A stretch of 64,000 nt of DNA from an uncultured Chloroflexia bacterium (GTDB lineage Bacteria; Chloroflexota; Dehalococcoidia; UBA2979), in assembly GCA_963728205.1 (NCBI GenBank), contig CAVSIV010000001.1:288001-352000 (forward strand). Reading direction: 5' to 3'. The notes under the pieces were generated by a model. That model had not been told where the DNA came from. It was given only the letters and a program-made list of their open reading frames with translations, and ran no database searches. Position numbers and translations under genes: made by a program. Positions 6,171 to 49,517 of the stretch are shown in pieces. Numbering within the stretch: the stretch's first letter is position 1; each line of letters opens with the position of its first letter.

Positions 6171-6352
6171 CCTGCGGCAACCGCACGAGCACCCGTGGCT
6201 CGGGAGCTTCGCGTCGTATACGCGGAGCCACGCGGTGCCGGCCGTCCCGACCGCGGCCGGTCCGTTTGGCTCCTGACTCCCTGCGGGCGCGGCCGTGTGC
6301 CGCCGGCCCGAGGTCGCTGGCAGCGAGTGCGAACGAACGGAGCCCCCGCGGC

Positions 6353-6739
6353 ATGCTCGTCCGAGGCATCAGAGGCGCGACCACCGTCGCGGCCAACACG
6401 CGCAACGACATCCTGCGAGCGGCCGACGAGTTGCTCGGGGAGTTGGTGCGCGCGAACGCCATCGAGCGGGACCTGGTGGCTTCGATCCTGTTCACGACCA
6501 CGCCCGACCTCAACGCCGAGTTCCCGGCCGTCGCCGCCCGTGAGGCGGGGTGGACGGAGACGGCCCTCGAGTGCGTACATGAGATGAACGTCCCGGGCAG
6601 CCTCGCGCGGTGTCTGCGCATCCTGATGCACGTGAACACCGACCGGCCGCTGTCCGAGATCAAGCACGTCTCCCTCCACGGCGCGCGCGTCCTGCGGCGC
6701 GACCTGGCCGGTGACGAGATGGCGGAGGCCACCAGGTGA
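6353..6739 (+). CDS. aroH: Chorismate mutase, AroH type
   Basis: VRGIRGATT, FTTTPDLNAEFPAVAAR, EMNVPGSLARCLR, LRRDL. Confidence 0.94.
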   Translation: MLVRGIRGATTVAANTRNDILRAADELLGELVRANAIERDLVASILFTTTPDLNAEFPAVAAREAGWTETALECVHEMNVPGSLARCLRILMHVNTDRPLSEIKHVSLHGARVLRRDLAGDEMAEATR

Positions 6740-7785
6740 TTGTGATCATGAAACTCGGGCACGAGCCGGAGCAGCGCGACGCGGTGATCCACCGCATCAC
6801 GGAGCTCGGCCTCAGCGCGCAGCCCATCTACGGCGAGACGCGCACGGTGATCGCCGTGCTCGGGCAGGTCATGCCCGAGCTGAAGGACGAGCTGTCGACC
6901 ATCGACGGCGTCGACGAGGTGCTGCGCGTCTCGAAGCCCTACAAGCTGTCGAACCGCGAGGTGCACGTCGACGACACGGTCGTCGACGTCGGCCACGGCG
7001 TGAAGGTCGGCGGCGGGCGGCCGGTGTTCATGGCCGGGCCGTGCTCGATCGAGTCGCTCGATCAGCTGCACGCCGCAGGCGTGGGGGTGAAGGCGGCCGG
7101 GGCGCACGTGCTGCGCGGCGGCGCGTTCAAGCCGCGCACGTCGCCGTACTCGTTCCAGGGTCTCGGGCTCGCCGGCCTGAAGATGCTCAAGCAGGTCGGC
7201 GACGAGCTGGGCATGCCGACGATCACCGAGCTGCTCTCGGTGCGCGACGTCGAAGCCGTGGCGGAGCACGCCGACATCCTGCAGATCGGCGCGCGCAACA
7301 TGTCGAACTTCGTGCTGCTGGCGGAGGCCGGGAAGACCGGCAAGCCGGTGATGCTGAAGCGCGGCCCGGCGAGCACGATCGAAGAGTGGCTGCTGGCAGC
7401 GGACTACATCCTCAACCAGGACAACCCGAACGTGATGCTCTGCGAGCGTGGCATCCGCACCTTCGAGACCGCGACGCGCAACACCCTCGACCTCAATGCG
7501 GTCGCGCTGGCGAAGCGCCTGAGCCATCTGCCGGTGATCTCCGACCCGTCCCACGGGACGGGCAAGTGGTACCTGGTGCGGCCGATGTCGATGGGCTCGA
7601 TCGCCGTCGGCGCGGACGGCCTGATGATCGAGGTGCACCCGAACCCGGATCACGCCCTGTCGGATGGCGCGCAGTCGCTCACGCCGCGCAACTTCGCGGA
7701 GGTGGCGGCCGAGGCGCGCGCGCTGGCGGCGGCGATCGGGCGGCCGTTCGCGGACGCGCTGCCGACGGCCGTGGCCGCGGGCTAG
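6736..7785 (+). CDS. aroF: DAHP synthase (class I-beta, N-terminal regulatory domain)
   Basis: [62 protein letters not shown]. Confidence 0.96.
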
Positions 7786-8829: not shown

Positions 8830-9750
8830 GTGCTACTCGTCCGTGAGGAGCTGCGCCGCAGCGCGACGTCCGGCGCTCACGCGCTCTCCATCGGCGTCTT
8901 CGACGGCGTCCATCTCGGCCATCGCATGCTGATCGAGCGTCTCCGCGCCGAGGCGCGAACTCGCGGCCTCGGCACCGGCATCATCACCTTCCACCCCCAC
9001 CCCGTCACCGTCGTCCGCCCGGACATTCCGTTCTCCTACCTCGAGTCGCTCGAGCGCCGCGTCGAGCTGATCCGCGGCCTCGGCGTCGACTTCGTCTCCG
9101 TCCTCCAGTTCACCTCCGAGCTGCAGCAGGTTTCCGCGCTCGACTTCGTGCGCATCCTCGTCGAGGAGACGCAGATGCGCGTGCTCGTGGTCGGCGAGGA
9201 CTTCCACCTCGGCCGTGGCCGCGAGGGCGACACCGCGAAGCTCGCGGAGTACGGGCGCGACCTCGGCTTCGACGTCGTCGCACTCCCACTGCTGCAGAGC
9301 GACGCCGACCGCGTGTCGTCGACGCGCGTGCGCCAGGCGCTGGCCGCCGGCGACATGGAGCTCGTGGCGCAGCTGCTGGGCCGCCCGTACTCGCTGCGCG
9401 GCCCCGTGCTGCGTGGCGACCAGCGCGGGCAGAGCATCGGCTTCCCGACGATCAACATCGGCGTCAGCGCCGACCGCGCGCTGCCGCCCGACGGCGTCTA
9501 TGTGACGCGAGCCGAGGTCGGCGAATCGACGCACCACGCCGTCACGAACATCGGCACGCAGCCGACCTTCGAGGGCGCGACGCGTCGCGTGGAGACGCAT
9601 CTGCTCGACTTCGCGGGCGACCTCTACGGCCAGGTGGCGCGCATCGAGCTGCTGCACCGCCTGCGCGCGGAGCTGAAGTTCGACGGCGTGGAGTCGCTGG
9701 TCGCGCAGATCGGGCGCGACGTGGAGGCGACGCGGGAGTGGTTCGCATGA
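8830..9750 (+). CDS. ribF: Bifunctional riboflavin kinase/FAD synthetase
   Basis: IGVFDGVHLGH, VVGEDFHLG, VSSTRVR, GFPTIN, NIGTQPTF, ETHLLDF. Confidence 0.96.
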   Translation: MLLVREELRRSATSGAHALSIGVFDGVHLGHRMLIERLRAEARTRGLGTGIITFHPHPVTVVRPDIPFSYLESLERRVELIRGLGVDFVSVLQFTSELQQVSALDFVRILVEETQMRVLVVGEDFHLGRGREGDTAKLAEYGRDLGFDVVALPLLQSDADRVSSTRVRQALAAGDMELVAQLLGRPYSLRGPVLRGDQRGQSIGFPTINIGVSADRALPPDGVYVTRAEVGESTHHAVTNIGTQPTFEGATRRVETHLLDFAGDLYGQVARIELLHRLRAELKFDGVESLVAQIGRDVEATREWFA

Positions 9751-10994
9751 CGGCTTCGCAGGCGGCCGACTCGCCGCGGCGCATGGCGCCCGTCGACGAG
9801 CAGATGCGCGTGCTGCTCAACGGCACCGAGTACGGCGACGAGGAGACGCGTCGCACGATGGAGCGCGAGCTGCGCGCCCGCCTGGAGGAGGACCGCCCGC
9901 TCCGCGTGTACTGTGGCTACGACCCGACGAAAGCCGACCTCCACCTGGGCCACACGCTGACGATGCGCAAGCTGCGCCAGTTCCAGGACTTCGGCCACGA
10001 GGTGACGTTCCTGATCGGCGACTTCACGGGCCTCGTGGGCGACCCGTCCGAGAAGAACAAGGAACGCCCGATGATCTCCGCCGAGGAGCTCGCGGCGAAC
10101 GCGCGCACCTACGCGCAGCAGGCGTTCCGCATCCTCGACGGCGAGCGCACGGTCGTGCGCCACAACGCGGACTGGCTCGGCAGGCTCACCTTCGCCGACG
10201 TCGTCCGGCTCGCGGCGAAGTTCACCGTCGCGCAGTTCCTGCGCCGCGACAACTTCGCGAAGCGCTTCGAGCGCGGCGACGCCATCCACCTCAGCGAGTT
10301 CATGTACGCGATCATGCAGGCGTACGACGCGGTGCACATGCAGACCGACGTGCAGGTCGGCGGCACCGAGCAGCTCTTCAACCTCATGGCCGGCCGCACG
10401 CTCCAGGAGCAGGCGGGCCAGCGTCCGCAAATCGTCGTCACGCTGCCGATCCTCGTCGGCACCGACGGCCACGACCGCATGTCGAAGTCGACCGGCAACT
10501 ACATCGGCATCGACGAGCCGCCGAGCGACATCTACGGCAAGCTGATGTCGATCCCGGATTCCGCGATCCTCGACTACTTCACGCTGGCGTCGCCGGCGCC
10601 GCCCGACGAGGTCGACGCGATCCGCCGCGCGCTCGAGGACGGCGCGCTGAAGCCGATGGACGCGAAGAAGCGGCTGGCGTTCGCGATCACGGAGTCGCTC
10701 TACACGACCGCCGACGCCGAGGCCGCGCAGCGCTTCTTCGAGACGACGATCCAGCGCAAGGAGACGCCCGACGAGATGCCCGAGCACCGACTCGCCGAGT
10801 CGGCGCCGCTCCACCGCGTGCTGGTCGAGGCGGGGCTCGCTTCGAGCAACGCCGAGGCGCGCCGGCTGGTCGCGCAGGGCGCGGTGGCGCTCAACGGCGA
10901 GCCGGTGGCGGAGTTCACGACCGAGGTATCGCCGGGCGATGAGCTCAGGGTCGGGAAGCATCGCTTCCTGAGGCTCGTCGACGGCGCTCAGTAG
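9747..10994 (+). CDS. tyrS: Tyrosine--tRNA ligase
   Basis: GYDPTKADLHLGH (HIGH), GGTEQLFN, RMSKS (KMSKS), C-terminal S4 domain. Confidence 0.97.
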   Translation: MTASQAADSPRRMAPVDEQMRVLLNGTEYGDEETRRTMERELRARLEEDRPLRVYCGYDPTKADLHLGHTLTMRKLRQFQDFGHEVTFLIGDFTGLVGDPSEKNKERPMISAEELAANARTYAQQAFRILDGERTVVRHNADWLGRLTFADVVRLAAKFTVAQFLRRDNFAKRFERGDAIHLSEFMYAIMQAYDAVHMQTDVQVGGTEQLFNLMAGRTLQEQAGQRPQIVVTLPILVGTDGHDRMSKSTGNYIGIDEPPSDIYGKLMSIPDSAILDYFTLASPAPPDEVDAIRRALEDGALKPMDAKKRLAFAITESLYTTADAEAAQRFFETTIQRKETPDEMPEHRLAESAPLHRVLVEAGLASSNAEARRLVAQGAVALNGEPVAEFTTEVSPGDELRVGKHRFLRLVDGAQ

Positions 10995-11025
10995 ACACAG
11001 GGATGGCAGGCGGGGGGCTCAGCCG

Positions 11026-11475
11026 ATGATGGACAACGGGGTCGAAGTCGATATCGATGCGGTCACGCGCAACGTCGACGAGGCTGAGGTGGTGACGTTC
11101 TACTTCCCGATCCTCGGGAAGACGCTGCTGGTCGACACGCGGTCGAGCGAGCACGTCGGCCCGATGATCCGCATCGTACCGATCGCGGACAGCTCCGCGG
11201 AGCGACTGCGCTCGCTGCGCCGGCTCCGGCCGGAGTTGCCGCGCCCGAACTCGATCACGCTGATCCCGTGGAACCGCAGCATCGCGTCGCTGGTGAAGCT
11301 CGGCGTGTGGCAGCACCTGACGCGCCGGTTCGACGCCCGTCTGGATGCCGACACCTACCTCACCGCCGGCGAGCGCTGCCTGCGCCGCCTGCGCGAGCTG
11401 GAGCGCGACGAGCTGCGCTGCGCGATCACCGGGGCGCGCTACGAGGCGCTCTGGTCACGCGAGGAGAGCTCGTAG
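11026..11475 (+). CDS. Hypothetical protein (149 aa)
   Basis: Clean ORF with genome-typical codon usage between tyrS and the convergent EF-G paralog; no family recognised. Confidence 0.75.
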   Translation: MMDNGVEVDIDAVTRNVDEAEVVTFYFPILGKTLLVDTRSSEHVGPMIRIVPIADSSAERLRSLRRLRPELPRPNSITLIPWNRSIASLVKLGVWQHLTRRFDARLDADTYLTAGERCLRRLRELERDELRCAITGARYEALWSREESS

Positions 11476-11548: not shown

Positions 11549-13600
11549 TTACGCCGTCGCCTCTGCCGTCTCGAGGCCCTGCAGCACCTGCTGCTGCACG
11601 TGCGCCGGCACCTCGACGTAGCGATCGAATTCCATGCTGAAGCGGCCCCGGCCGCCGGTCAGGGCGCGCAGGTCGCTCGTGTAGCGCTGCACTTCGGCGA
11701 GAGGCACGTCGGCGGTGATCACGCTCGTGGCACCGTCCGGCTCCACGCCGTGCACGGCGCCGCGCCGGCCGCTGAGGTCGCTCATCACATCGCCCACGTA
11801 CTCGCTCGGGATGCGCACCGTCAGCTTCATCACCGGCTCGAGCAGGATGGGGTGTCCGTCGAGCACGCCCTGCTTGAGCGCCTGCGACGCCGCGAGCTTG
11901 AACGCCATCTCGGACGAGTCCACCGCGTGCGACGAGCCGTCGGTCAGCGTGACCTTGAGGTCGACGAGCGGCGAGTGCGCGAGCGGGCCCTGGGGCAGCG
12001 ACTCGGCGATGCCCTTCTCGACGGCCGGGATGAACTGGCGCGGCACCGATCCGCCCACCACGGAGTCGGCGAACTCGAAGCCGGCGCCGCGCTCGCGCGG
12101 CTCGACCGCGATCACCACGTGTCCGTACTGGCCGTGACCGCCGGTCTGCTTCTTGTGCCGGTACTCGGCCTTCGCCGGCGCCGTGATCGTCTCGCGGTAC
12201 GGCACGCGCGGCACCGTGCCCTCGACGTCGACGCCGTAGTTCCTGTGCAGGTGCGCGATGGCGATCGCGGCCTGCGCGTCGCCCAGCGTCGTCATCACCA
12301 TCTCGTGCGTGTCGGGGTCGCGCTCGACGCGGATCGTCGGGTCCTGCTCGGTGATGCGGTGCAGCGCCTGCGAGACCTTGTCAACGTCCTCCTTCGAGCG
12401 CGGATGCAGCGCCGTCCGGTACGTGCCCACCGGCAGCGGAAGCGGCGGGAGGGCGACGTTCGACTCCTCGGAGGCGACGAGCACGTCGCCGGTCGCGGTG
12501 CTCTGCAGCTTCGCGGCGACGCCGATGTCGCCGGCGTGCAGCACCGGCACTTCGAGCTGCTCCTTGCCGCGCTGCACGTAGAGGTGGCCGAGGCGCTCGG
12601 TCGCCTTGCTGCGCCGGTTGTACGGCTGCATCTGCGCGGTGAGGTTCCCGGACAGCACCTTGAGGAACGAGAGATGACCGACGAACGGGTCGGCGGTCGT
12701 CTTGAACACGTGAACGACGAGTGGCCCGTCGGAGTCGACCCGCAGCGTACCGCCCACGATCTCGCGCTCGCGGCCGAGGGGCGACGGGAAGACGCGCACG
12801 ATGTCGTCGAGCAGCGTGCGGACGCCGATCTCCTGCGTCGCGCAGGCGGGCAGCACCGGCCAGACGATGCCGGCGGCGAAGCCGTTGTGCAGCGCCGTGG
12901 TGAGCTCCTCGTCGCTGATCGTGCCGCCCTCGAGGTACCGCTCGAGCAGCGCGTCGTCGGTCTCCGCCACGGACTCCACGAGCATCTCGCGCGCGGCGGC
13001 GATCGCGTCCGCCATGTCGGCCGGCGCGTCGCCGATCTCGTCGCCGCGGCGCGCCTGGCCGGTGAGCAGGTCGACGGCGCCCTCGAGGCTGCCGTTCGAG
13101 CCGATCGGGATGGCGAGCGGCACGGCCTTGTTGCCGAAGCGCTCGCGGATCTGGCCGAGCACGCCGTCGAAGTTCGCGTGCTCGCGATCGAGGCGCGTGA
13201 TCAGCAGCATGCGCGGGAGCCGCCCGGCCGACTCCGCGTGCTCCCACGCGACCTCGGTGCCGGCCTCCACGCCGGCCGTGGCGTCGACGGTGATCACCGC
13301 GGACTCCGCGGCATGCGCCGCGGCGACGACCTCTCCCTCGAAGTCGGCGAAGCCCGGGGTGTCGATCACGTTGATGCGGCAGTCCTGCCACTCGATCGGG
13401 ATGAGGGAGGAGGAGATGGAGTAGCCGCGCGCGTGCTCTTCCTCGTCGAAGTCGGAGACCGTGTTGCGGTCCTCGACCCGCCCCATGCGCGAGATGGCGC
13501 CGGAGACGTGCAGCAAGGCCTCCGCCAGCGTCGTCTTGCCGGAACCGCTGTGGCCCATCAGGACCACGTTTCGAAGGGCTTCTGAGGCGTATTCCTTCAT
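11549..13600 (-). CDS. Elongation factor G-like protein (EF-G2 / FusA paralog)
   Basis: GHSGSGKTTL, DTPGFADF, PYRETI, KKQTGGHGQYG, HAVDSSEMAF, LLEPVM, LRALTGGRG; lies outside the str operon. Confidence 0.92.
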   Translation of the reverse strand: MKEYASEALRNVVLMGHSGSGKTTLAEALLHVSGAISRMGRVEDRNTVSDFDEEEHARGYSISSSLIPIEWQDCRINVIDTPGFADFEGEVVAAAHAAESAVITVDATAGVEAGTEVAWEHAESAGRLPRMLLITRLDREHANFDGVLGQIRERFGNKAVPLAIPIGSNGSLEGAVDLLTGQARRGDEIGDAPADMADAIAAAREMLVESVAETDDALLERYLEGGTISDEELTTALHNGFAAGIVWPVLPACATQEIGVRTLLDDIVRVFPSPLGREREIVGGTLRVDSDGPLVVHVFKTTADPFVGHLSFLKVLSGNLTAQMQPYNRRSKATERLGHLYVQRGKEQLEVPVLHAGDIGVAAKLQSTATGDVLVASEESNVALPPLPLPVGTYRTALHPRSKEDVDKVSQALHRITEQDPTIRVERDPDTHEMVMTTLGDAQAAIAIAHLHRNYGVDVEGTVPRVPYRETITAPAKAEYRHKKQTGGHGQYGHVVIAVEPRERGAGFEFADSVVGGSVPRQFIPAVEKGIAESLPQGPLAHSPLVDLKVTLTDGSSHAVDSSEMAFKLAASQALKQGVLDGHPILLEPVMKLTVRIPSEYVGDVMSDLSGRRGAVHGVEPDGATSVITADVPLAEVQRYTSDLRALTGGRGRFSMEFDRYVEVPAHVQQQVLQGLETAEATA

Positions 13601-41508: not shown

Positions 41509-43152
41509 CTACTCGTCGTCCCCGGATTCGTCCTCGTCCTCGATGAAGTCCTCGCCGTGGAGGGCCGCCTCGATCTCCTCTTCGTCGAGATCGAGCTCGA
41601 AGCGGCGACCGCCGCGCGCGGGGCGCACGGGCCGCACCGGCGTGGCCTCGCGGCGCACCGGGCCGCCGCGACGCCGGCTGCGCGGGCCGCCGCCGCGGGC
41701 GCGGCCGGCCTCTTCTTCCTCGTCCTCGGGGCGCAGCTCGCGGATCTCCTCCGCGAAGCGCAGGCCGCCGGGCTGCGGGGCCGTGCGCGGGCGCTCCTCG
41801 CGCGTGGGCGCCGGCGCGACTTCGGCCGCGGGGGCTTCCTCCTCGGCCTCGACGAGCTCCGCGAGCACCTCCATCTCGGGGGTGAGGCGGGTGGCCTCCT
41901 CCTCGCGCTGCAGGCGTTCGCGGCGTGCCGCCGCGGCGGCCTGCTCGCTCGGCAGGCCGGGGCGCGCGTAGGCGGCCTGCGACGGGGCAACCTCCTCGGG
42001 TGGCTCGAGCGTCTGCTGCACGGTGGGCACGCCCGGCTGCACGCGCAGCGGGATCGCCTCGAGGTTCGGCTCGGGCGGCGGGTACATGTCCTCGCCGGCC
42101 TTGATCAGCGCGCTCTCCGGGCGAATGTCGATCCGCCAGCCGGTCAGCTTCGCCGCGAGGCGGGCGTTCTGGCCCTCCTTGCCGATCGCGAGGCTGAACT
42201 GCTTGTCCGGCACCGCCAGGAACGCCGTGTGGTTCTCGTCGTCGAGCCGCACCGAGACGACCTCGGCCGGGCTCAACGCGTTGGCGACGAAGGCCCCCTC
42301 GTTGGGGTCCCAGCGAATGAGGTCGATGCGCTCGCCGCCGAGCTCGTTGACGATGTTCTGGATGCGCGACCCGCGCACGCCCACCGACGCGCCGATTGGG
42401 TCGATGCCGTCCTGCCGCGAGATCACGGCGACCTTCGAGCGGTAGCCGGGCTCGCGGGCGATGCCCATGACCTCGACGGCACCGCGCGAGATCTCGGGGA
42501 CCTCGAGCTCGAAGAGTCGCTTGATCAGCTGCGGGTTGGCGCGCGAGACGACGACCTGCGGGCCCTTGGACGCCTTGTAGACCTCCTTCACGTACACGCG
42601 CAGCCGCTGGCCGACGCGGTAGTGCTCGGGCCGGACCTGCTCGGACGCGGGAAGGACGGCCTCCGTGCGGCCGAGGTCCAGGATCACCTGGCGGCGGCCG
42701 CCCTCGACGCGGAGGACGGTGCCGGAGACCAGCTCGCCCTCCTTGCCGGTGAAGTCCTCGAAGACCGACTCGCGCTCGGCCTCGCGCAGGCGCTGCAGAA
42801 CGACCTGCTTCGCTGTCTGCGCGGCGATGCGCCCGGCGTTCGGGTTCTCGGCGAGCGCCTCGCGGACGACGTCGCCGATCTTCGCGTCGGGCTGCCCCAT
42901 CGCGCGGGCGCGCTCCGGCGAGACCTGGATCTCGTCGTCCTCGATGTCGTCGTCGCTCATGACCTCGTAGAGGCGCCAGGCGTGGATGTCGCCGGTCTCG
43001 CGGTCGATCTTGACGGCGATGTCCGCGTACTGGAGGTCGTCCTTCTTGAAGGCCGACGCCATCGCGGCCTCGACGGCCTCGAACACGGTATCGGCGTTGA
43101 GGTTCTTCTCGGCCGACAGCTGCGCGATCGCGGTGACGAACTCGTTCTTCAT
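41509..43152 (-). CDS. nusA: Transcription termination/antitermination factor NusA with long C-terminal extension
   Basis: [60 protein letters not shown]. Confidence 0.97.
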
Positions 43153-43249
43153 CAGTTCCTGCCAGGCATTCCTCGGGGTCGTCACCACGTCGCCGCGACC
43201 GGATCGCGAGCGTCCGACTGCCGCCCCTGGGTGCGTGGTTGCGTCCAAC

Positions 43250-43276
43250 AAAAAACGTGGGCTGCACGCCCACGTC
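43250..43276 (-). terminator. Leader terminator/attenuator of the nusA operon (rimP-leader-like)
   Basis: Minus strand acgtgggc-gtgca-gcccacgt-tttttg, downstream of an extended -10 TGcTACGAT (43307-43315) and about 100 nt before the nusA ATG. Confidence 0.8.
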
Positions 43277-43485
43277 TCTGGTGAAGGAGGCGGGTGACTG
43301 GTTGCAATCGTAGCACCGCGCATGGAGGACCGACAAGGAGGAGAGGGCGCCGGGCGCGACCCCGCCGCGTGCTGCGACCCGGAAAGGTGACGGTCCGAGG
43401 CCGATCGATCGTCGGCGGTAAGAGCGCGGCAAGAGCCGCTCCGTAGGGTGCGCGCGCAGGGCCGGTGCAGCGGGGGGCGAGCCTG

Positions 43486-43746
43486 ATGCCGTACGAAAGT
43501 CACGTCGAAGTGTGGGAGTTCACCCCGCGGCAGCGGGACATCGTCGGCCGGATGTTGCGCGGCACCGCGCCCAAGCAGATCGCCCAGCGGCTGGGGCTGG
43601 ACGTGCGGACGATCTACTGGCACGTCGAGAACATCTACCGCATGGCGGACGTGCACAGCCTCGGGGAGTTCTTCGCGTGGGCGAACGACCACCGCGAATG
43701 TTGCAGCCTCCAGCTCGTCTGGAGCACCCCCCGCAGGAGTGCCTGA
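43486..43746 (+). CDS. Stand-alone LuxR-type helix-turn-helix protein
   Basis: FTPRQRDIVGRMLRGTAPKQIAQRLGLDVRTIYWHVENIYRMADV fits the LuxR/GerE HTH; no receiver domain. Confidence 0.82.
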   Translation: MPYESHVEVWEFTPRQRDIVGRMLRGTAPKQIAQRLGLDVRTIYWHVENIYRMADVHSLGEFFAWANDHRECCSLQLVWSTPRRSA

Positions 43747-43860
43747 CTGCGTTGCCGGAATTGCGGGCCGCGCCCCGGTGGCGCCCGGGCTCGTGCGCCT
43801 GGCGCTCTCCCTAGCATCACGGCATCCAGTCGAGGGCCGGTGATGCGAGAGGAGAGCGGA

Positions 43861-44124
43861 ATGCTTGCCACGATGTCGCCGACGCTGGAGCTGCCGTTCG
43901 ACGCCGTCGAGCTGCCCCGGAACGCCTCGCTGGTTCCGTGGGAGGCGCCCTGGATCGACCTCAGCGGCCGCGAGGTCGAGGGGGACGAGTTCGCGTTCCT
44001 GGCCGCCTGCGTCGTGTGCGTGGCGATCATCAGCGTGGTCGCGGTGGCGGCCATGGTGACCGGCAGCTCGATGGACGCCGGGGTCAACCTCGGCCCGTTC
44101 GGGCTCGAGATCTCGGTCAACTAG
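43861..44124 (+). CDS. Putative RiPP/bacteriocin-like precursor peptide (87 aa)
   Basis: SD GAGGAG; acidic Pro-rich leader with WEAPWIDLSG; hydrophobic core FAFLAACVVCVAIISVVAVAAMVTG...; directly upstream of the ABC exporter and RRE-protease. Confidence 0.7.
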   Translation: MLATMSPTLELPFDAVELPRNASLVPWEAPWIDLSGREVEGDEFAFLAACVVCVAIISVVAVAAMVTGSSMDAGVNLGPFGLEISVN

Positions 44125-44138
44125 GGCCGAGCGCACCA

Positions 44139-44173
44139 CGTCGTCTCGGCGGTCGTCGACCGTCGAGGCGACG
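44139..44173 (+). promoter_or_regulatory. Stem-loop between the precursor gene and the ABC transporter gene
   Basis: cgtcgtctcggcggtcg-t-cgaccgtcgaggcgacg; about 15-16 bp stem with two G-U pairs, no U tract. Confidence 0.65.
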
Positions 44174-44191
44174 AACGGAACGAGGACGGGC

Positions 44192-44983
44192 ATGACGGGA
44201 GACAGCGAGCACGTGCCGGTGTGCGCGATGGGCGGCGTCTGGTTTGGCTACGGGCGCGTGCCGGTGCTTCGCGGACTCAATCTAACCGTTGCCCCTGGCA
44301 CGGCGGTGGCGCTGATCGGCCCGAACGGGTGTGGGAAGACGACGACCCTCCATGTGCTGTCGGGCCTCCTGAGGGCGTCGCGCGGCACGGTCGCGATCGC
44401 GGGCCGCGGGGTGCCGGGTCGCCCGGAGGAGGTCAACGCACTCCTGGCATACGTCCCGGATACGCCGACGGGGTTCGAGCACCTCGCCGTCTCGGAGTAC
44501 GCACGGCTCGTCGGCGCGGTGCACCGGGCGGACACGGACTACGCCCGGCGCGTTCGCGACCTGGTGCGCATTCTCGCGCTCGAGCCGTACATCTCGCAGC
44601 CACTCGGCACGCTCTCGTACGGCACGCGTCGCAAGGTCGCGCTCGTCGCGGCAGCGGCCCTCGATCGCCCCCTCCTGATGCTGGACGAGGCGACCAACGG
44701 CCTGGACCCGGAATCGGTGAACGTCGTCGAGAAGCTGGTTCGCTCGATCGTCGCACGCGGGCGAGGGGTGCTGGTCGCGACGCAGGACGTCTATTTCGCC
44801 GAGCGGACCTGCGACGAGGTGGCGCTGCTTCGCGACGGTCGAGTGGTGATCAGTGGTCTGGTGTCCGACGTGAAGCGCGAACGGGGCGCGGCAACCCTCC
44901 GCGACGTGTTCCTTGCTGCGACCGGCCTGGATGTCGAGGATGGAGCGCTCGATGCCGCCCTGGCTCGCGCTGACGCGCGCTGA
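44192..44983 (+). CDS. ABC transporter ATP-binding protein (exporter type)
   Basis: Walker A GPNGCGKTT, signature LSYGTRRK, Walker B LMLDEATNGLD; H-loop variant ATQD. Confidence 0.93.
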   Translation: MTGDSEHVPVCAMGGVWFGYGRVPVLRGLNLTVAPGTAVALIGPNGCGKTTTLHVLSGLLRASRGTVAIAGRGVPGRPEEVNALLAYVPDTPTGFEHLAVSEYARLVGAVHRADTDYARRVRDLVRILALEPYISQPLGTLSYGTRRKVALVAAAALDRPLLMLDEATNGLDPESVNVVEKLVRSIVARGRGVLVATQDVYFAERTCDEVALLRDGRVVISGLVSDVKRERGAATLRDVFLAATGLDVEDGALDAALARADAR

Positions 44984-46373
44984 GTTCCTGAGACTGCGAA
45001 CCCTGTCGGCGCTCGCGCGGCGAAATCCGCTCCTCCCGCTTGCCGCCGCCGCGGCGCTGGTCCTGGGAGCGTGGCTCTCGGTTCGAGCCGGGATCGCGAC
45101 GGGCGGCCTCGTCGCGGGGGCGCCTCCGGCGCTGCTCCCGCTCCACACCCTCTTCCTCCTCTCCGCCGGCATGCTCGGTGGTGGGTCCGCCCTCCTGGCC
45201 CCCCGCGCATCTCGACACGATGAGCAGTTGCGGCTGCTGCCCTTGCCGCCGTCGCGCGTCTTCCTCGGCACCACGGCCGTTCCGCTGACGGCTCTCTGGG
45301 TCGGATCGCTCCTGCCCTTCGCGTGCTTCGTCGGGCCGTTCTACTGGCAGATCCCGGTGCCGCATCGGGGCGGCTGGTTTGCAGTGCTCTGCGCCGCGTA
45401 CCTCGCTGCGTGTGTGGTGGGAGCGTCGGTCGCGGAGGCCATCCGCCTGCTCTGGCACGCCCGGGCAAACCCCCGCCAGGCGGCCTTCGCGTGGGTGGCG
45501 TTGCCGATGCCGGCGGCGCTGCTCCTCGTTGCGGTGGTGGGCCGGCGCCCGTGGTGGTCGGGCACGGCCGCGTGGCTCCCCGGCGCGGTCGGGCGACCCT
45601 TCCACGCCGAGAGCGGACTGCTCGCGATCACGGCGATCCTCGCGTCCGGCCTGGTCGCCGGGGTCGTATGGGTCCTGCTCGGCGGGCGGGTGGTGCCAGC
45701 GGCTCGCGCGGAGCGGATCTGGATCACCCTGTCCCCCCGGCATTCCGGGCGATACGTGCTCCTGGGGTGGTGGCTCGTCACGGCGTTCCTGCGCGACACC
45801 CCGCTTTTCCTGAGTGCCATCCTCGCGACATGTGGGGCTGCGGTCCTGGCGTTCGCCAACGTCTTCATGGGGCGCGAAGGTGGACTGCTGGCGCCCCTCG
45901 CCCTGCTGCTCGCGCTTGCCGGCGGCGGGCAGGTTGCCATGACGCTCTCCGAGCGGCTGCAGGCCTCCGGGTGGTTCTGGCGCCTGGCGCCGAGTCCGCG
46001 CGAGGTTCCCGGCCTCTGGTGGTGGGTCGGCGCCTCCGCGCTGGCGATCGCCGTCTCGACTGTGGCTGTTGTGCCGGCGGTCCTGCGCTCGACCGTGCAA
46101 CCCGCGGACGCGGCCGTTCTCCTCGCCGCAAGCAGTTTCGGCGTGTCGGCGCTCGGGCGAGCCACTCCATGGAATAGCCGGTCCCAGTTGCAGCAGGCCG
46201 GGTCGACCGTCCTCTACTTCGGCGGCCTGCTCGGGGTCGGCGGGCTGTTCGACTGGGTCGGCGGGCGCGTGCCGGCACTCATGGCCGCATCTCTCGTCGT
46301 GCTCCTCGTCGCAGCGCTGTCCGCCGGGTTGTGTGCGTATCTGCCGTGGAGGAACTCATGGCGGCAGGCGTAG
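44952..46373 (+). CDS. Polytopic membrane protein, probable ABC exporter permease
   Basis: About 12 hydrophobic segments in two halves; 'LRLLPLPPSRV' and 'WRLAPSP' loops typical of ABC-2-like permeases; overlaps the ATPase gene. Confidence 0.75.
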   Translation: MPPWLALTRAEFLRLRTLSALARRNPLLPLAAAAALVLGAWLSVRAGIATGGLVAGAPPALLPLHTLFLLSAGMLGGGSALLAPRASRHDEQLRLLPLPPSRVFLGTTAVPLTALWVGSLLPFACFVGPFYWQIPVPHRGGWFAVLCAAYLAACVVGASVAEAIRLLWHARANPRQAAFAWVALPMPAALLLVAVVGRRPWWSGTAAWLPGAVGRPFHAESGLLAITAILASGLVAGVVWVLLGGRVVPAARAERIWITLSPRHSGRYVLLGWWLVTAFLRDTPLFLSAILATCGAAVLAFANVFMGREGGLLAPLALLLALAGGGQVAMTLSERLQASGWFWRLAPSPREVPGLWWWVGASALAIAVSTVAVVPAVLRSTVQPADAAVLLAASSFGVSALGRATPWNSRSQLQQAGSTVLYFGGLLGVGGLFDWVGGRVPALMAASLVVLLVAALSAGLCAYLPWRNSWRQA

Positions 46374-47188
46374 AACGAGCCCGGCTCCCGAGCGACGTCA
46401 CAGTCGCGCCGACGGCGATTGTCGATACCGCGCTCGAGCAGATCTATCCGATCTCGCCGTCGGGCCGGGAGGTGCTGACGCTGCTCCTCGAAGGCAGAAC
46501 GTTCTCGGAGGTCGCCGATCGAATCGCCGCGGACCACCGCCTCGCGCCCGAGCGGGCGGAGCGCCACGTTCGCGAGTTCGCGTACCAGCTGAACCACACG
46601 GATCTGCTCAACGTCGACCCTGGAGGCCTGCGTCGGGAGACGTTGCAGGTCGCGCACACGCTAGCGCTGGCCGCACTTGCACGGCGGCTTCCGAGGTTGC
46701 GGCGGCACCGGTATCCGCTCCGCAATCGGTCGTTTCTGCCGCTGCAGGTCGATGTCGCGCGGGGGATCTTGGTTGGTCTCTGGCCCTGCTGGGCGCTGCT
46801 GGCGGCGATCTACTGCGTCGGTCTCCTTGCCTCGCCCGGGCGAATCGCGGCGCTGTCGTTTGTCCCCGCCCTGCTCGTCGCAACCGTCATTCACGAGTCC
46901 GGTCACGCATTTGCCGTGGGACGGCGCGGTGGGGGCGCGTTCTTGAGCATCGTCGGGATGTCGGTGCGCGTGATGCACTCGCCGCGCTACTCGGGCTTCT
47001 TTGTACACGCGGCCGGCAGCGGGTTCGCCGTCGGATGTGGATTGCTCTGCCTGGCGGTTGCGTACTTGTCGGGCGCTGGGGCCTTCGCGATTGCAAGCGG
47101 TCCATTCCTGGTGAATGCCCTGGCACTGACCGTCCTATCGGCCGATGGACGGCAACTCGTTGTGGGCCCGTGGGAGAGGGAGTCCTGA
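46358..47188 (+). CDS. PqqD-like RiPP recognition element fused to an M50/site-2-type intramembrane metalloprotease
   Basis: N-term YPISPSGREVLTLLLEGRTFSEVADRIAADHRLAPERAERHVREFAYQL (PqqD pattern); TM-embedded VIHESGH; AAG; NALALTVLSADG (N..DG third ligand); SD GGAGGA. Confidence 0.75.
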   Translation: MAAGVERARLPSDVTVAPTAIVDTALEQIYPISPSGREVLTLLLEGRTFSEVADRIAADHRLAPERAERHVREFAYQLNHTDLLNVDPGGLRRETLQVAHTLALAALARRLPRLRRHRYPLRNRSFLPLQVDVARGILVGLWPCWALLAAIYCVGLLASPGRIAALSFVPALLVATVIHESGHAFAVGRRGGGAFLSIVGMSVRVMHSPRYSGFFVHAAGSGFAVGCGLLCLAVAYLSGAGAFAIASGPFLVNALALTVLSADGRQLVVGPWERES

Positions 47189-47189
47189 G

Positions 47190-47453
47190 ATGCTCGCGCT
47201 TCGAGCCGGTGCGATTGGCTTCGTCGTGGTTCTGCTCATCGAGGTTGCCTTCAGCGTGGGGCTGATGGTGGTTGCCCAGGCATCGGGGTGGGGTCACATC
47301 CACCTCGCGCTGGGGTCTCTCGACTTCCTGGAGATCACCACGAACACGCCTCGAACGCGCATCGTGATCGGCACCGGCGTCAGCCTGCTCGCCATGGCGG
47401 CGGGCCTGCTGAATGCGGCGGGCGCATACTGGCTGCGCCGTGCCGAGAGGTAA
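47190..47453 (+). CDS. Small two-TM membrane protein (possible immunity/accessory)
   Basis: 87 aa, two hydrophobic helices around a polar loop; ATG 1 nt after the previous stop, GGAG upstream. Confidence 0.65.
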   Translation: MLALRAGAIGFVVVLLIEVAFSVGLMVVAQASGWGHIHLALGSLDFLEITTNTPRTRIVIGTGVSLLAMAAGLLNAAGAYWLRRAER

Positions 47454-47772
47454 GAACAGCCGCCGCAGCGCCCGCGAGCGCTCCAAGGATCCGCCGCCGC
47501 GCCGGCGGCCCGGGCTCGCGACGCGTGTCGTCGTGCAACTCGGACCCGCGATCGTCGGCGTCTACGGCCTCGGCCAGATCCTGGGTAGTGGGTGGCCGGC
47601 CCCGTGGCGTCCACTCGCGGCGACCGCCTGGATCCTCGTTGTCCTGCTCGTGGCGTGGGCGGCACTGTACCGGTGGGGCGGCGAGAAGGAGCGACGCGAC
47701 GTCGCGAGCGCTGCCCAATCCGCGCGCCGCTTCGCCGCGCGGACAGCGGGCCGAAACTCCGGCCGTCGCTAG
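47440..47772 (+). CDS. Small basic two-TM membrane protein (possible immunity/accessory)
   Basis: GTG overlaps the previous gene; two hydrophobic segments with Arg-rich ends; stop overlaps the proS stop (CTAG). Confidence 0.55.
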   Translation: MPRGKNSRRSARERSKDPPPRRRPGLATRVVVQLGPAIVGVYGLGQILGSGWPAPWRPLAATAWILVVLLVAWAALYRWGGEKERRDVASAAQSARRFAARTAGRNSGRR

Positions 47773-49517
47773 TCCGCGCGCCACTCCGCGAGGAGCGCGT
47801 CGCGCAGCGAGCGCACATGGGCGACGACGTCCGCCCGCTGCACCGGCTCCGCCAGCCCGTCCGCGCGGCGCTGCAGCTCGACCACCCCTGCCTTGTGGTT
47901 GCGGGTCGACACCGTCAGTCGCACGGGGACGCCCAGGAGGTCGGCGTCGTTGAACTTCACGCCGGGCGACTCGTCGCGGTCGTCGAAGAGGACGTCGACT
48001 CCCGCCGCGTGCAGCTCGGTGTAGAGCTGCTCGGCGTCCTCCCGGACGGCGGCATCGCGGTCGAGGCCGAGCCCCACGAGGTGCACCTCGTACGGCGCGA
48101 TCGCCGCCGGCCACGCGATCCCCTTGTCGTCGTGGTGCGCCTCCACGGCGGCGGCGACGATGCGGCCGAGCCCGATGCCGTAGCAGCCCATGACCGGCGT
48201 GACCGGCTTGCCGTCAACCCCGTCGACGGTCACCTCCATCGCCGTGGTGTAGGTCGTGCCGAGGCGGAAGACGTGCCCCATCTCGATGCCGCGTTCGACG
48301 CGCAGCGTCCCGCCATCGCAGCGGGGGCAGCCGAAGCCCGGGCGCGCGAGGGCGATGTCGGCGACGGTCGCGGCCGTCCAGTCGCGGCCGTAGTTCACGT
48401 TGCGCAGGTGCTCTCCGATGCGGTTCGCGCCGGCGACGAGGTTCGGCGACTCGGGGAGCGAGATGTCCGCGACGACCTGTACGCCGCTCGGCGCATCGAT
48501 GGGCGAGGCGTAGCCGGCGACGAGGCCGTGCTCGGCCACCTCCGGATCGAGCATGGGCCGCAGCTCGCGTCCCCCGAGGGCATTCATGAGCTTCACCTCG
48601 TTGACGTCGAGGTCGCCCCGCACCACCGCGAACACCGGCAAGTCGGACTCGCCGTGCTTGCCCTTCGCCATGAAGAAGACGGCCTTCGCGGTACGCCGCG
48701 GCTCAACCTCGAGGAAGCGCGCCAGGTCCTCGATGGTCGTCATGCCGGGGGTCTCGACCGGCTCCAGGGGCAGCGGCGCCTCGCGCTCGGCGGGCGGTCG
48801 GACGAACTCCGCCTTCTCGGTGTTGGCCGCGTAGTCGCAGGCGTCGCAGACGACGATCGTGTCCTCGCCGGTGTCCGACACGAAGATGAACTCCTGTGAC
48901 CCCTTCCCGCCGATCGCGCCCGAGTCGGCCTCCACGGGGACGACCGGCACGCCGCAGCGCGCGAAGACGCGCTTGTAGGCGTCGAACATGAGGCGGTACG
49001 AGTCGTCGAGGCCGGCGTCGTCGAGGTCGAAGGAGTACGCGTCCTTCATCGTGAACTCACGCACGCGGATGAGGCCGCCTCGTGGACGCGCCTCGTCGCG
49101 GAACTTCGACTGCACCTGGTAGAGGATGACGGGGACATCGCGGTACGAGGACGTGTGCCGGTCGAAGAGCTGGGTGACGACCTCCTCGTGCGTCGGCCCG
49201 AGTGCGAGCCCGCGCTCGCGCCGGTCGACGAGCTGGAAGAGGACGTCGCCCATCGCCTCCTTGCGGCCGGTCTTCTCCCAGAGCTCGATGGGCTGGATCA
49301 CCGGCATGCGCACCTCGAGGGCGCCGGCGGCGTCCATCTCCTCTCGGATGATGCGCTCGACCTTGCGTTCGACGCGCCAGCCGAGCGGAAGATACGAGTA
49401 CACGCCCGCCATCAGCTGATCGATGAAGCCGCCGCGCAGCAGCAGCGAGTGGCTGGCGGTCTCGGCCTCCCCGGGTGCTTCGCGGAGCGTGCGGCCGAAC
49501 AGGCGCGTCATTCTCAT
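47769..49517 (-). CDS. proS: Proline--tRNA ligase (with INS editing domain)
   Basis: GPTHEE, KFRDEARPRGGLIRVREFTMKDAYSF, GIEMGHVF, MGCYGIG, DDRDESPGVKF. Confidence 0.97.
   Translation of the reverse strand: MRMTRLFGRTLREAPGEAETASHSLLLRGGFIDQLMAGVYSYLPLGWRVERKVERIIREEMDAAGALEVRMPVIQPIELWEKTGRKEAMGDVLFQLVDRRERGLALGPTHEEVVTQLFDRHTSSYRDVPVILYQVQSKFRDEARPRGGLIRVREFTMKDAYSFDLDDAGLDDSYRLMFDAYKRVFARCGVPVVPVEADSGAIGGKGSQEFIFVSDTGEDTIVVCDACDYAANTEKAEFVRPPAEREAPLPLEPVETPGMTTIEDLARFLEVEPRRTAKAVFFMAKGKHGESDLPVFAVVRGDLDVNEVKLMNALGGRELRPMLDPEVAEHGLVAGYASPIDAPSGVQVVADISLPESPNLVAGANRIGEHLRNVNYGRDWTAATVADIALARPGFGCPRCDGGTLRVERGIEMGHVFRLGTTYTTAMEVTVDGVDGKPVTPVMGCYGIGLGRIVAAAVEAHHDDKGIAWPAAIAPYEVHLVGLGLDRDAAVREDAEQLYTELHAAGVDVLFDDRDESPGVKFNDADLLGVPVRLTVSTRNHKAGVVELQRRADGLAEPVQRADVVAHVRSLRDALLAEWRAD

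Follow-up and report, generated by a model that had tools for sequence, protein, structure and literature searches.

The closest known system to the locus described here is the daptide pathway with its peptidase MpaP (Ren et al. 2023). According to the account in PMC10036551, MpaP is a site-2 peptidase fused to a RiPP recognition element (RRE; RiPP, ribosomally synthesized and posttranslationally modified peptide) and removes the leader from hydrophobic helical peptides beside ATP-binding cassette (ABC) transporters; the daptide leader, ELExMEAP, has its Pro at position –1, and Leu(–7) and Met(–4) are needed for the RRE-dependent processing. We analyzed a 64,000-nucleotide stretch of DNA, here called the window, from an uncultured Chloroflexia bacterium (GenBank assembly GCA_963728205.1, contig CAVSIV010000001.1, positions 288,001 to 352,000) and focused on a module of genes for a precursor-like peptide, an ABC ATPase, a large permease, an RRE–protease fusion and a small protein with two transmembrane helices (2-TM). 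The module is neither a daptide nor a lasso system. Judging from its sequences, we consider it fairly probable that it would serve the RRE-guided intramembrane removal of a leader and the ABC export of an otherwise unmodified hydrophobic peptide, with the 2-TM protein acting as a subunit or a protector.

Positions 43465–47772 of the window hold seven open reading frames (ORFs), all on the + strand and enclosed by nusA and proS on the – strand. The initial annotation, made without database searches, had described seven co-oriented genes opposite proS and nusA, and all the ORFs were found at their places:

43465..43746, + strand: GerE/LuxR-type helix–turn–helix (HTH) protein, 93 amino acids (aa); Pfam PF00196 GerE, E 3.6e-8
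43861..44124, + strand: precursor-like peptide gene, 87 aa; GC content at third codon positions (GC3) 0.98; no Pfam or NCBIfam family
43939..43968, + strand: leader motif W-E-A-P-W-I-D-L-S-G, peptide residues 27–36, in the register Y-x-x-P-x-L-x-x-x-G
43990..44121, + strand: predicted core or mature peptide, residues 44–87, 44 aa; putative cleavage after Glu43
44139..44173, + strand: 16-bp hairpin, attenuator- or stabilizer-like, between the peptide stop codon and the ABC gene
44192..44983, + strand: ABC ATPase, 263 aa, DrrA/ABC-2-like; PF00005, E 3.3e-24
44940..46373 (longest ORF from 44913), + strand: large polytopic permease, 477–486 aa; no Pfam or NCBIfam family
46358..47188, + strand: fusion of an RRE and a site-2-type zinc protease, 276 aa; PF05402, E 3e-5, above the gathering score
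47190..47453 (longest ORF from 47145), + strand: conserved 2-TM partner protein, 87 aa, found by a hidden Markov model (HMM); no family match
47413..47772, + strand: ORF rich in Arg, 119 aa; two weak hydrophobic segments, no family match

The module resembles the daptide pathway in having the RRE fused N-terminally to a site-2 protease, in the adjacent ABC transporter genes and in a precursor that consists of a leader followed by a hydrophobic helical segment; as far as the daptide account goes, the leader motifs also agree at their ends, ELExMEAP and the L-V-P-W-E-A-P of the window both closing with x-E-A-P. However, the daptide decarboxylase pair, aminotransferase, methyltransferase and second RRE protein are all missing from the module. 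The daptide peptides have an invariant C-terminal Thr, whereas the window peptide ends in Asn and none of nine homologues from other loci ends in Thr. The module also differs in that about 13 more residues separate the motif from the hydrophobic segment, that most loci have just one peptide gene, that a 2-TM protein is added in every locus and that the tail is bracketed by Cys residues in most members. The match of the window protease to the NCBIfam model NF041824 daptide_HExxH (E 2.9e-5) reached 23.4 bits against a cut-off of 300, and the protease is thus not an equivalog.

In both sequence profile and fold, the N-terminal domain of the protease is closest to the lasso B1 proteins, and the leader of the module has a lasso-like motif, Y/W-x-x-P-x-L/I, whose aromatic residue precedes the presumed core by 17 residues, to the extent that lasso leaders are described in PMC10368454 and PMC12710340. 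In contrast to lasso systems, the module has no B2 cysteine (transglutaminase-like) protease, no Asn-synthetase-like cyclase and no macrolactam-forming core, and the protease that it does have, joined to the RRE, is an intramembrane metalloprotease. Epipeptide loci, as presented in PMC10885120, share with the module a membrane M50-type protease (YydH/EpeP) and an ABC transporter (YydIJ) acting on a small peptide. They carry a radical SAM (S-adenosylmethionine) epimerase that the module lacks, however, and the epipeptides (YydF/EpeX) are unrelated to the module's peptides.

Maturation without modification has precedents in the maturation of enterococcal and streptococcal pheromones by the site-2 protease Eep with export by PptAB and in the RasP and EcsAB proteins of Bacillus, where a hydrophobic helix is cleaved by an intramembrane metalloprotease and the peptide, unmodified, leaves through an ABC-2-type pump. 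Eep and RasP are housekeeping RseP-type enzymes with a PDZ domain and without an RRE; they act on lipoprotein signal peptides or SHP precursors and are not encoded in one operon with the peptide. The presumed logic of the module is similar, but its protease is a dedicated, RRE-bearing one in an operon with the substrate.

The absence of tailoring enzymes, a central point of the initial annotation, was borne out. No radical SAM, YcaO, lanthipeptide, cyclase, methyltransferase or aminotransferase family was found among the seven window genes (Pfam and NCBIfam, E ≤ 1), and no tailoring enzyme among 52 flanking ORFs from 10 loci. The locus likewise falls outside the daptide, lasso and epipeptide classes, in agreement with the earlier view that it matches no described class: the peptide, the permease and the 2-TM partner had no match among the curated families of Pfam and NCBIfam, and PADLOC gave only generic ATPase and HTH matches and none for the peptide, permease, protease or small transmembrane proteins. 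No description of the module was found in the literature on RRE and PqqD-protease proteins, where the daptide paper, a review of leader proteases and unrelated papers were the only matches, a search that did not extend to the supplements of the daptide paper, in which RRE–peptidase families are listed.

The RRE–protease fusion has two domains. The RRE (PqqD-like) spans approximately residues 3–96, with the PF05402 match at residues 34–92, and the site-2-type domain residues 115–276, including the catalytic motifs HESGH (residues 179–183) and DG (263–264). Compared against the Protein Data Bank (PDB), the profile of the protease family matched TfuB1 (E 1.1e-8), PqqD (3.3e-7) and TbiB1 (2e-5) on the RRE side and MJ0392 (3.4e-7), RseP (0.015) and SpoIVFB (0.068) on the protease side. 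An AlphaFold2 (AF2) model of the protein had a predicted local distance difference test (pLDDT) score of 92.4 and a predicted template modeling (pTM) score of 0.88. In VIA-align comparisons, the N-terminal domain of the model superimposed on the lasso B1 proteins TfuB1 (Z 12.2, root-mean-square deviation 1.2 Å over 81 residues) and TbiB1 (Z 10.9), both present in the PDB as structures solved with a leader peptide bound, and the C-terminal domain on the site-2 proteases MJ0392 (Z 9.5 over 143 residues) and SpoIVFB (Z 8.8); the Foldseek template modeling scores, normalized by target, were 0.86 for TfuB1 and 0.43 for MJ0392. NCBIfam gave a weak match to NF033530 lasso_PqqD (E 2.6e-6, below the cut-off) besides the daptide one, while Pfam Peptidase_M50 had no match to the window protease at E ≤ 1. 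Among 42 aligned members, H179, E180, H183, G264 and R265 were invariant and D263 and H207 at least 90% conserved. The N-terminal domain thus folds as PqqD/RRE, and the assignment of the C-terminal part to an HExxH membrane protease holds as well: the fold and profile matches indicate that an RRE of the leader-binding type is joined to an apparently active site-2-type protease.

The two-domain build is characteristic of a family. An exhaustive HMMER search of 1.84 billion representative sequences found 90 relatives of the protease at E ≤ 1e-3 and 32 at E ≤ 1e-10; nearly all are about 250–310 aa long and match across almost the entire query, as expected for a family with a fixed architecture. 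A word-based search with the window protease matched the protein itself alone, a metagenome scan with P0002, one of the nearest relatives of that protease, found no relative, and a search for fused forms of at least 518 aa found none, which is weak evidence. To locate carriers, we used a degenerate DNA pattern, HExGHA...LT....DGR, derived from the two catalytic motifs and run on species-representative genomes. It matched 26 stretches: 16 family members, two other M50 proteases and eight unrelated ones. Among the 16, the protein was full length in one ORF in 14 cases, split in one case and strongly matching but poorly tabulated in another. The carriers were Gaiellales, Thermoleophilia and other Actinomycetota metagenome-assembled genomes (MAGs), a SAR202 MAG, a Dormibacterota MAG and Chloroflexi MAGs.

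We fetched 15 loci from other genomes and found the gene order ABC ATPase, large permease and RRE–protease to recur in Chloroflexota, Dormibacterota and Actinomycetota. (In the following, G000 is the genome of the window, and other G- and L-numbers are genomes of relatives and fetched loci.) The conserved core comprises five genes, for the peptide, the ATPase, the permease, the RRE–protease and the 2-TM partner, together with a hairpin. Immediately before the ABC gene, 13 of the 14 other loci that cover this DNA have a peptide ORF, which is 70–82 aa long; the locus without a peptide is that of G001, and G246, where the contig ends too early, is outside the count. The precursor-like ORF proposed in the initial annotation is thereby conserved in the homologous operons.

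The peptides share a design in which a short leader, acidic in character, is followed by one hydrophobic helix and then by a tail, about 22 residues long and usually bracketed by two Cys; in the window, an acidic leader is followed by a single transmembrane helix (residues 44–62) and a 25-aa tail. We built an HMM from nine foreign peptides and ran it on the complete set of G000 stop-to-stop ORFs with 30 aa or more (54,026 ORFs); the window ORF ranked first (E 0.023) and the runner-up reached 0.65. The alignment takes in the leader motif, the acidic stretch and the helix, with a Pro invariant between the window peptide and the foreign ones, and together with the weak score it identifies the window peptide as a divergent family member. 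A profile search placed at least 250 clusters (90% identity) in the family at E ≤ 0.01. Among the 120 clusters listed, most are 70–74 aa long, one is from Gaiella occulta, whose peptide is annotated as Gocc_1461, and none has a Pfam domain; those with a name are called "hypothetical protein" or, in one case, "uncharacterized membrane protein." NCBIfam has no model for the family.

The leader motif and its spacing recur across these peptides. [YWF]-x-x-P is present in all of the 118 best family members, with Tyr in 117; a Leu, Val or Ile follows two residues past the Pro in 111 and a Gly nine residues past the Tyr in 71. In 111 of the 118, the uncharged helix starts at a distance of 17 from the aromatic residue. 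As these members are mostly close kin, ten lineage representatives give a more independent count, and the spacing holds in nine of them, including the window (W27 to E43, then F44). The lasso leader motif YxxPxL sits at positions –17 to –12 in the description of PMC10368454, and the YxxP occupies the RRE cleft in that of PMC12710340; a motif-to-helix spacing of 17 would place the module in the same register. From this we infer that RRE binding would set the cut at the leader–helix junction and yield a 44-aa product in this genome, although a cut directly after the Pro of L-V-P-W-E-A-P may, by analogy with the daptide leader, be the alternative.

Tandem copies of the peptide gene occur in G309 (three) and G285 (two). 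In the former (L034, G309:C2, positions 12675–13508, – strand), the three paralogues are located upstream of the ABC gene, and in two of them the leader aromatic is replaced, giving L-x-x-P and A-x-x-P types, while P-x-hydrophobic-x-L is kept.

Under the reading that we favor, the 87-aa product would span the membrane with a single helix, its acidic leader facing the cytoplasm and a short tail following the helix. The leader motif W/Y-x-x-P-x-(L/I) would be bound by the RRE head of the protease, which is lasso-B1-like and would be cytoplasmic as well, and, as the motif is a fixed 17 residues before the helix, the binding would position the leader–helix junction (after Glu43) at the cytoplasm-facing zinc site, where the fused site-2 protease could cut it. 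The ABC-2-type pump, formed by the ATPase and the large permease, would then extract or export the 44-aa hydrophobic product, and the 2-TM protein would work with the protease or the pump or protect the producer. The product itself may be a membrane-active antagonist or a signal. A minimal RRE-dependent pathway had been proposed for the locus from the start; of that proposal, the RRE, the protease, the precursor-like ORF and the lack of tailoring stand, while the LuxR protein looks like a resident neighbor and the second small transmembrane ORF is not conserved.

The hairpin after the peptide gene is consistent with such a product. At 44139–44173 it has a predicted energy of –38.4 kcal/mol (z –3.56), and none of 200 shuffled sequences was equally stable. 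A hairpin was found at the same position in all nine loci folded, with stems of 11–17 bp and z from –1.1 to –5.6; the nine share no sequence and one of them is AT-rich. Lantibiotic and lasso operons are known to have such structures behind their precursor genes, and the hairpins of the module fit a product made in excess over its machinery: the structure would keep the peptide mRNA more abundant than that of the downstream genes.

In the transporter, the ATPase is nearest to the NCBIfam model drrA TIGR01188 (E 3.6e-42, below the cut-off). Walker A and B are present in the window copy, and the H-loop position holds Gln, which may mean slow or regulated ATP hydrolysis. The Gln stands in the context A/S-T/x-Q-D in the window gene (44192–44983) and in the ABC genes of L070–L072, L076, L077, L079 and L080; His is retained in L075, by the motif scan, and, by eye, in the g118 copies. 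The permease has nine strong hydrophobic segments in the hydropathy profile, fewer than the roughly 12 transmembrane helices initially assigned to it, and 11 other loci have a homologue of 18–32% identity in the corresponding place. The AF2 model obtained for the permease is poor (pLDDT 60.8), the permease profile has no solved relative in the PDB (best match only E 0.2), and look-alikes in the ESM Atlas, which serve as leads only, were ABC-2 permease, 12TM_1, DUF5687 and ABC_export.

In 15 of 15 loci, the gene that comes next after that of the protease encodes a homologue of the 2-TM protein (E 2e-38 to 9e-8 with an HMM of six homologues), and in G130 the two are fused in a 417-aa ORF. The two small transmembrane proteins had originally been regarded as immunity factors. 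The universal presence of this one and its fusion in one lineage make a subunit likelier than a free immunity factor, and the other one, which is weakly hydrophobic and has no homologue elsewhere, dropped out. An apparent likeness between the tail of the window peptide and the loop of the 2-TM protein was due to chance, as 1,230 of 2,000 shuffles reached its score.

The same protease–2-TM fusion could be taken to mean that the peptide and the 2-TM protein belong, as structural or regulatory subunits, to an ABC transporter for another substrate, such as a lipid, an envelope precursor or a drug, with the RRE–protease tethering the peptide or controlling its turnover. The strict co-occurrence of all five genes, the strong conservation of the peptide's helix and tail, the DrrA-like ATPase and the place of the module in the Thermoleophilia core genome agree with this. 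A stable subunit hardly explains the leader motif, its fixed spacing and an apparently active protease, however; the hairpin implies unequal expression and the copy number of the peptide varies from 0 to 3, and we consider this explanation quite improbable.

The genes next to the module are housekeeping genes that vary by lineage. In seven Actinomycetota loci (L072, L075, L076, L077, L079, L080 and L081), the module is located between a GH5-like gene, which is divergently oriented, and sucA (2-oxoglutarate dehydrogenase E1), with two further small transmembrane ORFs before sucA. The shared placement in these MAGs suggests vertical inheritance as a part of the core genome.

LuxR homologues of 68–73% identity are found between nusA and proS in G001 and also in G002 and G003, which have no module; in the latter two, the homologue (68–71% identical) lies within a nusA–proS gap of about 1.1 kb. 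As the regulator is present without the module, the module appears as an insertion beside a resident gene. The LuxR gene initially reported is hence real, as its Pfam match indicates, but its presence without the module in two genomes of the same genus marks it as a resident neighbor rather than an established part of the system. A link between the two is nevertheless possible, as GerE regulators also follow the module in L070 and L071. Three such genes are found there (L070, positions 9340–11423, and L071, 4161–6268; Dormibacterota and Chloroflexi CF_106), two of which have, by eye, hydrophobic, membrane-like N-terminal halves. In G004, of a same-family genus, a different, 257-aa ORF replaces LuxR in the gap (L084, G004:C80, positions 196–969, – strand), showing that the nusA–proS intergenic site varies among relatives.

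The adjoining GerE regulators, those of G000 and G001 as well as the three genes in L070 and L071, bring up regulated intramembrane proteolysis. The small protein would then be a membrane-anchored regulator or sensor whose cleavage alters gene expression, either by freeing a cytoplasmic N-terminal fragment or by destroying an anchor, and the ABC transporter would have only the remnant left in the membrane to remove, a task attributed to EcsAB in the case of RasP. A cytoplasmic RRE that binds the leader would put the peptide in the type II orientation, which is that of known site-2 protease substrates, and its high conservation and synteny in Thermoleophilia also speak for such a role. However, the LuxR gene of the genus occurs without the module and no regulator is found beside the seven Actinomycetota loci. 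The leader has no signature of a DNA- or sigma-binding family, and the tandem paralogues and the hairpin better fit an excess product than a regulator. On these grounds we regard the signaling explanation as unlikely.

Within the window's own order, the protease was found in G000 and G001 only, two of 99 genomes (and two of 41 relatives), and in a 401-genome sample of the phylum full-length matches (E ≤ 5e-29) were limited to G000 and four genomes of another genus. The other matches in that sample cover one domain and look like generic M50 proteases or lone PqqD proteins; six genomes of the sample are marked as unpublished, and nothing specific is claimed from them. The copy in G001 looks like a disabled or rewired module: at the place of the peptide gene it has a second LuxR/GerE paralogue, 53% identical to the window LuxR (L003, G001:C93, positions 6277–7587, – strand). 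The sparse occurrence in the order raises the question of whether the locus in this genus is a horizontally acquired, decaying remnant, the window copy having no functional product. Neither the peptide gene nor Walker B is left in G001, the Cys pair of the family is gone from the window peptide, and the module proteins of G000 and G001 are 33–45% identical while proS and nusA are about 80% identical, all of which could reflect decay. Yet the window ORFs are all intact with strong coding GC3, their catalytic and Walker motifs are intact, and the leader motif, spacing and hairpin are kept. The G000 and G001 proteases also form one well-supported clade (100/96) with three other divergent representatives, indicating that the type has persisted. 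We therefore consider a decayed window copy to be very unlikely.

Several observations nevertheless weigh against RRE-guided cleavage and export. The window peptide is a weak match, 21–29% identical to the family with an E of 0.023, and has neither of the Cys residues that are at least 90% conserved elsewhere. Across the 118 best family matches, conservation is higher in the helix and tail than it is in the leader; this, combined with the fixed synteny in Thermoleophilia, is unlike typical fast-evolving bacteriocin loci. The sole carrier in the same genus, G001, has no peptide gene and an ATPase that lacks approximately 42 residues including Walker B, and the genus may thus hold decaying copies. 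The H-loop His is replaced by Gln in the window and in seven of the eight other loci in which the motif was found, and the permease, with a poor model and no solved relative, could not be assigned to a type.

More tentatively, and with chances that we would put somewhat short of even, the family may represent an undescribed, phylum-spanning class of ribosomal peptides. Removal of the leader would be the sole maturation, the RRE would act as a 17-residue ruler for the fused protease, and cleavage would be coupled to a dedicated ABC pump and the 2-TM partner; a disulfide would be the most that is added in the way of tailoring. Such a peptide might, in Thermoleophilia, have a core-genome function, for example as a conserved membrane-active signal, rather than being an accessory antibiotic. 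RRE domains serve as class-independent beacons in the mining for modified peptides; if the proposal is true, an RRE can serve proteolysis and export alone, and RiPPs become harder to tell apart from bacteriocins or pheromones that carry no modification. With its 250 or more clusters at 90% identity, which are entirely unannotated, the family would also be a compact, testable model of substrate choice by an intramembrane protease, with the motif at a fixed 17-residue distance from the helix, and the presence of the cultured Gaiella occulta among the carriers of the peptide makes the prediction directly testable. In addition, it proposes a role for conserved hypothetical genes of poorly known soil and aquatic lineages (Thermoleophilia, SAR202 and Dormibacterota).

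Among the remaining features of the locus, the ORF at 47413–47772 begins within the last part of the 2-TM gene and ends next to the stop codon of proS. Its GC3 is 0.83 but the corresponding value at second positions (GC2) is 0.66, and tblastn found no match to it in any other locus examined; the ORF is outside the conserved module and may or may not be a gene. A scan of 43100–48000 found no sigma-70-like promoter and a sole terminator-like site at 43253–43271 on the – strand (1.6 expected by chance), which lies in the spacer separating nusA from LuxR, some 60 bp ahead of the nusA start, and is therefore not the nusA terminator. Among public sequencing runs, small shares were found in two soil DNA runs only, and no RNA run was listed.

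The tight packing noted for the last five genes was confirmed, with successive junctions overlapping or abutting (–71, –16, –44 and –41 nt for the longest ORFs). The 87-aa ORF has GC3 of 0.98 against 0.66 at first positions (GC1) and 0.46 at second positions, and the other genes have GC3 of 0.79–0.93; in DNA of about 70% GC, the third-position pattern marks the frames as coding and supports the earlier call of the peptide ORF as a real gene. Shine–Dalgarno-like sequences (GGAG, GAGGA or GGAGG) precede the starts of the peptide, ABC and protease genes, with GGAG 8 nt before that of the peptide. An alternative GTG start upstream, at 43840, would give a peptide ORF of 94 aa.

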